From: Escherichia coli
GTDB lineage: Bacteria > Pseudomonadota > Gammaproteobacteria > Enterobacterales > Enterobacteriaceae
Strand: one strand, 5' to 3'
Length of the DNA: 64,000 bases
NCBI RefSeq assembly: GCF_030384885.1
Contig: NZ_CP128613.1
Shown here: positions 10,936 to 11,015 of the stretch, piece after piece
How the letters are laid out: each line of letters opens with the position of its first letter
Numbering within the stretch: the stretch's first letter is position 1
The notes under the pieces: model-generated
Seen by the model: the letters and a program-made list of their open reading frames with translations, nothing else
What the model was told of the DNA's origin: nothing
Databases searched by the model: none
Translations under genes and position numbers: made by a program

Positions 10936-11015
10936 GGCAAAAAAATGCCCGCCCCGGCGATCCCAGAGCGGGCAGACAAAACATACCCAGTTTCATGATA
11001 TGTTTTAAAGCGAGC
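10936..11015 (-). ncRNA. flgL 3' UTR with intrinsic terminator; candidate 3'-UTR-derived sRNA (FlgO-type)
   Basis: On the minus strand GCCCGC-N16-GCGGGC hairpin followed by ATTTTTTTGCC about 40-80 nt downstream of the flgL stop; sRNA identity is from literature memory. Confidence 0.4.

Follow-up and report, generated by a model that had tools for sequence, protein, structure and literature searches.

What does the short interval between the convergent genes rne and flgL of Escherichia coli encode? We addressed this question in a 64,000-nt stretch of contig NZ_CP128613.1 (RefSeq assembly GCF_030384885.1), referred to here as the window, in which a preliminary description had singled out the 3' untranslated region (UTR) of flgL as the candidate source of the flagellar-regulon small RNA (sRNA) FlgO. 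According to the open reading frame list, rne occupies 7636..10821 on the plus strand (stop codon, 10819-10821), and flgL occupies 11016..11969 on the minus strand, where its TAA stop codon covers 11018-11016. The flgK gene lies at 11981-13624 on the same strand as flgL, and the coding region of the parental flgK-flgL mRNA spans 11016..13624 (minus strand). All three gene names were confirmed by the annotation of a strain with an identical gap. The gap runs from 10822 to 11015 and measures 194 bp, a correction of the 195 bp first claimed; its sequence is 100% identical in several non-K-12 strains and 95 to 99% identical in most others. The expectation of two opposed, tail-to-tail terminators held up: a terminator scan, which returned 7 terminator-like sites in 900 bp versus 1.2 expected, located the flgL-side site on the minus strand and, facing it, the intrinsic terminator of rne at 10840..10873 (plus strand), a 10-bp hairpin (10840-10863) followed by a T-rich tail. 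On the flgL side, the proposed order of stop codon, about 40 nt, GC-rich hairpin, and U run was seen as 41 nt followed by a hairpin at 10974-10946 and seven U residues at 10945-10939. The two terminators are separated by a 75-bp AT-rich spacer (10864-10938) whose conservation is limited to Escherichia and in which neither strand showed a promoter-like site or any other feature.

The identity of the minus-strand segment follows from comparison with the K-12 reference. The curated RefSeq record of MG1655 (NC_000913.3) carries an ncRNA, flgO (b4826, “small RNA FlgO”), at 1140986..1141063. The annotated gene opens on the final base of the flgL stop codon; Table 2A of PMC8175672 lists identical coordinates, and the primer used to clone pZE-FlgO, ATTTCGCTTTAAAACATATCATG, has the same first base as the annotated gene (PMC10578931). 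The K-12 interval aligned without gaps to 11016..10939 (minus strand) of the window, with 74 of 78 positions identical and 4 substitutions. A covariance model, R1, which we built from 72 homologues (alignment A2, described below), gave a single match in the window, at 10939-11011 on the minus strand (81.2 bits; E = 7.6e-17). Judged by this base-for-base alignment and the model match, the 78-nt segment at 11016-10939 (minus strand) is the allele of flgO b4826 that encodes FlgO, the known sRNA of the flgL 3' UTR. The feature is thus confirmed as real, as correctly interpreted from the outset, and as already known.

The window allele and K-12 FlgO share their locus (3' of flgL and convergent with rne), their length, and a two-hairpin fold, and they differ at two places. 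Directly after the stop codon, the window has GC where K-12 FlgO has UU, and in the terminator stem two C residues replace K-12 U residues, which converts two G.U pairs to G-C pairs. Minimum free energies were -33.6 kcal/mol for the window allele and -28.5 kcal/mol for K-12, with the fold unchanged; because G.U pairs have become G-C pairs, the window terminator is about 5 kcal/mol more stable than that of K-12. The FlgO element was present in a single copy in 5,424 of 5,426 complete E. coli genomes. (Five of the 5,424 matches lay on records typed as plasmids.) Positions 4 to 78 of the window sequence occurred in at least 1,288 of the 5,426 genomes and the K-12 version occurred in at least 1,593; therefore, both are common natural alleles.

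Folding divided the RNA into a short leader, two hairpins, and a U-rich tail. The 8-nt 5' leader, GCUCGCUU (11008..11015, minus strand, as are all the parts that follow), was unpaired in both the minimum-energy and the centroid structures. Hairpin 1 (10977..11007) has an A/U-rich 11-bp stem, in which 11007-10997 pair with 10987-10977, and a 9-nt loop, AUGAAACUG (10996-10988). A 2-nt linker (10975..10976) leads to hairpin 2 (10946..10974), the stem-loop of the intrinsic terminator, which has 12 bp, 9 of them G-C pairs, and reads UGCCCGCUCUGG-GAUCG-CCGGGGCGGGCA from 10974 to 10946, with GAUCG forming the loop. The sequence and the terminator scan place the transcript 3' end, which is also the presumptive Hfq-binding tail, in the U7 tract at 10939..10945. 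The 3' arm of hairpin 1 and the linker together form a U-rich tract, UGUUUUGUCU, immediately ahead of the terminator; we regard this tract as a candidate Hfq contact. The 80-nt segment first proposed (10936..11015) folded at -33.6 kcal/mol, compared with -20.5 ± 3.2 kcal/mol for dinucleotide shuffles (z = -4.15; none of 200 shuffles was as stable), and the 78-nt FlgO equivalent gave a z value of -5.13. Folding thus bore out the stable terminator that had been described in this segment and added the A/U-rich hairpin upstream of it (11007-10977), which had been overlooked. The two-hairpin fold was the minimum-energy structure in five of six folded sequences (the window, K-12, Salmonella, Enterobacter, and Kosakonia); in the sixth, from Buttiauxella noackiae, it was present as the centroid structure only.

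The flgKL genes form a late (class 3) operon that is transcribed by sigma-28 RNA polymerase. Upstream of flgK, we found a perfect sigma-28 -10 element, GCCGATAA, at 13658..13665 (minus strand), 33 nt from the flgK ATG, with a TCAA element 15 nt upstream of the box; as sequence motifs, the two are consistent with a class 3 flgKL promoter. The only match in the window to the full motif, TAAA-N14-16-GCCGATAA, was perfect, had an N15 spacer, and lay at 21801-21827 on the plus strand. This site falls between the flgA stop codon (21795) and the flgM start codon (21871) and corresponds to the class 3 flgMN promoter. Allowing up to one mismatch, GCCGATAA was overrepresented in the window (100 sites versus 56 expected; 0 of 100 shuffles), an excess that codon usage alone may explain.

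Some 3'-UTR sRNAs arise from a promoter of their own, as UhpU does in uhpT, and FlgO could be an independent gene of this kind, with its promoter inside the 3' end of flgL. An octamer at 11305-11312 (minus strand) resembles the sigma-28 -10 element with one mismatch and would speak for this reading, but the roughly 290 nt between it and the mapped 5' end farther downstream are incompatible with an RNA of 78 nt. Moreover, the promoter scan found no sigma-70-like site in 10500-11400, the only full sigma-28 motif is the one at 21801-21827, and the published sensitivity of FlgO to exonuclease indicates a processed 5' end (PMC10578931). We therefore consider an independent promoter very improbable. 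The lack of a promoter-like site upstream of FlgO would agree with its processing from the flgL mRNA.

Experiments with the K-12 allele bear directly on this point. On Northern blots, FlgO is a discrete doublet of about 75 nt, which its authors ascribe to differential processing; it is absent in a fliA (sigma-28) mutant, and its abundance peaks late, alongside that of FliX (PMC10578931, eLife 2023). A 5'-phosphate-dependent exonuclease depletes FlgO, and FlgO is therefore processed from the flgL mRNA; in Hfq coimmunoprecipitation, it is strongly enriched, ranking fourth among the sRNAs of Melamed et al. 2020 (PMC10578931). The two outcomes that would have told against the original proposal, namely, no stable fragment apart from the full-length mRNA and no association with Hfq, are contradicted for the K-12 allele by these data (PMC10578931). 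Sigma-28 dependence, the processed 5' end, the doublet, and strong Hfq binding are thus known for K-12 by experiment, while the identity of the window segment with flgO, the two-hairpin fold, the covariation, and the loop conservation come from the present analysis.

RNase E prefers to cut at RN|WUU, with U at position +2. The context of the K-12 5' end mapped at the last base of the stop codon (11016..11018 in the window, minus strand) is A|AUUU, which resembles this preference. In the window, the corresponding context is A|AGCU; therefore, since AGC replaces the AUU of K-12 at the 5' end, the exact processing site may differ. Both alleles have a second candidate site, GC|UUUAAAAC (GC|UUU; near 11010/11009 in the window), 8 nt farther downstream and immediately 5' of hairpin 1. 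This site fits RN|WUU, and cleavage there could yield the lower band of the doublet.

We then asked how widely the element is conserved, using an FlgL-anchored scan with one genome per species that covered 80 flgL loci of the Enterobacteriaceae. The two-hairpin element directly followed the flgL stop codon in 74 of the 80 loci, with a total flgL 3' UTR of 74 to 82 nt in most of them, and R1 scores of the element ranged from 42 to 90 bits. The element was found in Escherichia, Salmonella, Citrobacter, Enterobacter, Buttiauxella, Atlantibacter, Kluyvera, Kosakonia, Cedecea, Lelliottia, Leclercia, Trabulsiella, and Mangrovibacter, and one Pantoea genome carried a diverged copy. Three Pseudocitrobacter loci (L022, L023, and L025) lacked the element and had an unrelated hairpin with no U run. 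In three other loci (L056, L068, and L081), FlgO was also missing, having been reduced to the terminator or replaced; L056 retains the terminator only, and in L068 the first hairpin differs. In two loci, inserted sequence sets the element apart from the flgL stop codon, by about 60 nt in Intestinirhabdus alba (L028; 3' UTR of 138 nt) and about 30 nt in Buttiauxella izardii (L024; 3' UTR of 110 nt). A further locus, L060, is on a contig labeled Chryseobacterium sp. 18061 and has an Enterobacteriaceae-type flgL (74% identity) and an FlgO element scoring 80.9 bits that is one base off the element of Citrobacter sp. 18056 (L058), from the same project; L060 is probably a mislabelled or contaminated assembly.

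Alignment A2 comprised 72 sequences, and its RNAalifold consensus contained 18 base pairs. Compensatory double changes were seen at 14 of the 18 pairs: eight of the nine consensus pairs of hairpin 1 had changed on both sides, and all six inner consensus pairs of hairpin 2 showed compensatory changes. Standard pairs filled 97.4% of the cells, compared with 25 to 52% when the 3' partners were slid by 1 to 3 columns, and none of 500 column shuffles attained the observed values on any measure. G.U pairs were frequent (for example, in 31 and 25 sequences at two positions), and therefore the structure is on the flgL-sense strand. Loop 1 behaved differently from its own stem, which it exceeded in conservation: residues G17, A18, A19, A20, C21, G23, and G24 were 90 to 100% conserved, and one A was invariant. 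The motif GAAACUGG occurred in 56 of the 72 homologues, and GAAAC occurred in 65. Immediately ahead of hairpin 1, two U residues were at least 90% conserved, the tract 5' of the terminator was pyrimidine or U rich in all 72 homologues, and the 3' U run was 7 to 8 nt long in 67. The substitution patterns assembled here show the two hairpins to be under purifying selection for structure and loop 1 to be under selection for sequence.

The terminator loop (10962-10958 in the window) differs between lineages. A C-rich motif, CACCCC, was present there in 38 of the 72 homologues (for example, L014:2455-2533), including those from Salmonella, Citrobacter, Buttiauxella, Kosakonia, Cedecea, and Atlantibacter. 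Escherichia has GGGAUCGCC instead, and the Enterobacter/Lelliottia/Leclercia group has unrelated loops. CACCCC is thus a second conserved single-stranded motif, specific to certain lineages. A difference between the terminator loops of E. coli and Salmonella is mentioned in PMC10578931, which also reported the overall conservation of FlgO in a few species. The present analysis adds a broader survey, a statistical treatment of covariation, and the observation that loop and stem differ in conservation; it is not a new discovery.

An ATG within loop 1 (10996-10994) raises the possibility of a small protein. In the window, it opens a 26-codon frame, MKLGMFCLPALGSPGRAFFCLFCIVG, in the same frame as an open reading frame at 10916..11134. 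This ATG lies inside a hairpin loop and has no Shine-Dalgarno sequence, and the frame ends (at about 10916) only past the terminator, which would leave the sRNA without a stop codon. Among the 72 homologues, ATG was found at this position in 24, while 14 had nonstart codons (TGG, AAG, ACG, CGG, TCG, or TTT), and the varying length of the terminator loop breaks the frame. With its start and frame unconserved and no stop within the transcript, the small-protein reading has next to no probability and is effectively refuted.

A more serious alternative is that the element is a terminator plus a stabilizing hairpin, serving flgKL in cis, and that the 78-nt RNA is an Hfq-sticky remnant of mRNA decay that is inert in trans. 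Several observations speak for it. The terminator is strong and universally kept, the sRNA prediction score of FlgO is low (0.07 to 0.15; PMC8175672), its set of RIL-seq targets is the smallest and least reproducible of those of the four sigma-28 sRNAs, and its overexpression from a constitutive promoter changed neither flagella number nor motility (PMC10578931). This account, however, leaves loop 1 near-invariant (GAAAC in 65 of 72) while its stem turns over freely, and the distance to the stop codon is also conserved. Because a terminator or a protective hairpin needs no fixed loop sequence, we favor a sequence-specific partner over a pure by-product, and on the evidence of the alignment the conservation pattern of loop 1 argues for a sequence-specific role. 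We hold the purely cis-acting reading to be doubtful. Even a sequence-specific partner of loop 1, if there is one, might exert its effect in cis, through the full-length mRNA; we found no conserved complement in the 80 loci that would allow long-range pairing of loop 1 with the flgK or flgL mRNA.

The same published data have been read in another way. FlgO combines fourth place in Hfq enrichment with a small number of targets; its authors doubted that it acts by conventional base pairing and proposed that it titrates Hfq or recruits other proteins (PMC10578931). FlgO would occupy Hfq, or bring a partner protein to it, late in flagellar assembly and so alter the activity of other sRNAs instead of pairing with mRNA targets of its own. 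The sequence prerequisites for Hfq binding are in place in the window, in the form of the U-rich tract 5' of the terminator and the U7 tail, and across the homologues the putative Hfq-binding module is complete, with the U-rich tract, a strong terminator, and a tail of 7 to 8 U residues in 67 of 72. The constitutive overexpression that left motility and flagella unchanged (PMC10578931) weighs against titration, which would also, by itself, leave the conserved sequence of loop 1 unexplained. We regard titration or recruitment as the whole function of FlgO as a tentative possibility. In the literature after the 2023 paper, we found FlgO merely cited and no report of its function.

Returning to loop 1 as the probable site of specificity, we evaluated its complementarity to the published partners. 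The set comprised the nine RIL-seq partners found in at least two conditions; MG1655 sequences were used, and the best duplex energies were compared with a genomic background. Duplexes of 10 to 11 bp with loop 1 were predicted for gatC (site CCCGGUUUCAU; -16.4 kcal/mol; p = 0.096), msrB (site GCCCAGUUUC; -17.4 kcal/mol; p = 0.018), and ptsH (site CCCAGUUU; -15.2 kcal/mol; p = 0.055), and this test gave nothing for ptsG, gcvH, smpB, deoD, or lamB. Over the nine partners, Fisher's combined p value was 0.036 for loop 1 (uncorrected, with three regions tried); the corresponding values were 0.16 (5' tail) and 0.27 (linker). The complement of the core 7-mer was not enriched among the nine (3 observed versus 2.3 expected; p = 0.41). 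The complementarity of loop 1 to gatC, msrB, and ptsH is suggestive at best. A match in the ptsG 5' UTR overlaps the Shine-Dalgarno region and was rejected as no better than background (p = 0.9).

Within the window, the exact sequence CCAGTTTCA occurred only on the opposite strand of FlgO itself. The best complements of loop 1 elsewhere in the window were at 22742-22771 (plus strand; -20.3 kcal/mol), downstream of flgN and antisense to the 3' end of murJ, and at 7438-7462 (plus strand; -17.0 kcal/mol), in the rne 5' UTR; both were set aside, as their energies fall in the range of chance for the 128 kb searched. The FlgO sheet of supplementary file 1 of PMC10578931 is rich in carbohydrate-uptake and phosphotransferase system (PTS) genes, and the partners cited there include gatC, gatA, the ptsG 5' UTR, ptsH, the dhaK 5' UTR, lamB, and garP. 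In the FlgO data, the top odds ratios are those of rrlG.AS and rrlH.AS (NOR, 19 to 75), which are transcribed antisense to 23S rRNA genes, and the RIL-seq table assigns UhpU chimeras to flgL in four conditions (PMC10578931).

Taken together, these observations lead us to the following model, which we consider very probable as a whole (the identity of FlgO, its processing, its binding to Hfq, and a role for loop 1). Transcription of flgKL would start at the sigma-28 promoter ahead of flgK and would also reach these genes by read-through from the flgB operon, and the mRNA would end at the intrinsic terminator at 10974-10939. An endonuclease, probably RNase E, would cut at the flgL stop codon or immediately beyond it, freeing the entire 3' UTR as an RNA of about 70 to 78 nt. 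The two hairpins would protect this RNA, as would Hfq, which presumably contacts the U-rich tract and the U7 tail. In this reading, FlgO would be a functional RNA bound to Hfq, and its specificity may reside in the near-invariant loop of hairpin 1, UGAAACUGG, as its likely active site; the loop would contact a few RNAs (the candidates being gatC, msrB, and ptsH) or a protein. Late in flagellar assembly, FlgO might also take up a sizeable share of Hfq.

In a bolder version of this model, loop UGAAACUGG would be dedicated to recognizing one specific RNA or protein partner, and FlgO would have an output that motility assays have missed. At least 70 enterobacterial species retain the loop on a covarying stem, and we consider this version conceivable, although unlikely. 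If it is true, FlgO might link completion of the hook-filament junction to sugar-uptake and PTS mRNAs (gatC, ptsH, and msrB), and the C-rich terminator loop CACCCC, lost in Escherichia, would be a second, lineage-specific contact in many genera.

As a finding, this carries little weight: FlgO already has a name, a publication, and an annotation in the K-12 reference. The modest practical value lies in what follows for other genomes and for experiments. A search of Rfam 15 gave no match over 10936-11016 at gathering thresholds, and FlgO has no Rfam model; at E ≤ 10, the best subthreshold match in the region was anti-hemB, at 17.6 bits versus the required 49.5 bits. We dismissed the subthreshold matches (anti-hemB, L20 leader, SNORD19B, and others) as chance matches to terminator-like sequence. 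Gathering-level matches elsewhere in the window were the rne 5' UTR element (rne5; 7275-7611, plus strand), the sRNA SraB (5246-5414, minus strand), Ysr251 (62915-63108, plus strand), ES056 (48659-48750, plus strand), the PyrC leader (29342-29391, plus strand), and a tRNA (54349-54433, plus strand), each of them a known family. PGAP-annotated RefSeq E. coli genomes carry no feature over FlgO except the overlapping last base of flgL, and in the E. coli genome collection FlgO is named in the curated K-12 record alone. With neither an Rfam family nor PGAP annotation, FlgO therefore goes unseen in almost every genome record of E. coli and other enterobacteria. A family could be seeded from the 72-sequence alignment and its covariation-supported structure, which would suffice for this purpose. 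In strength of Hfq binding, FlgO belongs to the top group, and the contrast between a covarying stem and a fixed loop points to where mutagenesis could be aimed; loop 1 is the place to look for its function.

sRNAs are tied to flagellar genes in other bacteria as well. CJnc230 and CJnc170 are encoded with a flagellar operon in Campylobacter jejuni (PMC11187230), and Vibrio cholerae has ProQ-associated motility sRNAs (PMC11879080). What they share with FlgO is a concept, namely, coexpression with flagellar genes and tuning of the flagellar hierarchy; they use other chaperones and have other targets, and we found no kinship in sequence or structure. The Vibrio protein called FlgO is an unrelated outer membrane protein, and the shared name is a coincidence. 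Closer to home, FliX (from the fliC 3' UTR), MotR (from the motA 5' UTR), and UhpU (from the uhpT 3' UTR) share with FlgO a regulon, Hfq binding, and terminator-type 3' ends, and FliX, like FlgO, is processed from a late flagellar mRNA (PMC10578931). FliX, MotR, and UhpU have defined seeds, targets (ribosomal protein operons, fliC, and lrhA), and motility phenotypes, whereas FlgO has had none so far.

In its biogenesis, FlgO resembles the type II 3'-UTR sRNAs, such as CpxQ, SdhX, MalH, and NarS, which are mRNA 3' ends freed by an endonuclease near the stop codon. These RNAs share the terminator of their mRNA and bind Hfq, and FlgO is like them in both respects; MalH and NarS appear alongside FlgO in PMC8175672. 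FlgO differs in having no validated regulated target and in the placement of its conserved single-stranded residues: in sRNAs such as CpxQ, SdhX, MalH, and NarS, the conserved seed is usually linear and single stranded, whereas in FlgO the most conserved single-stranded residues are held in a hairpin loop.
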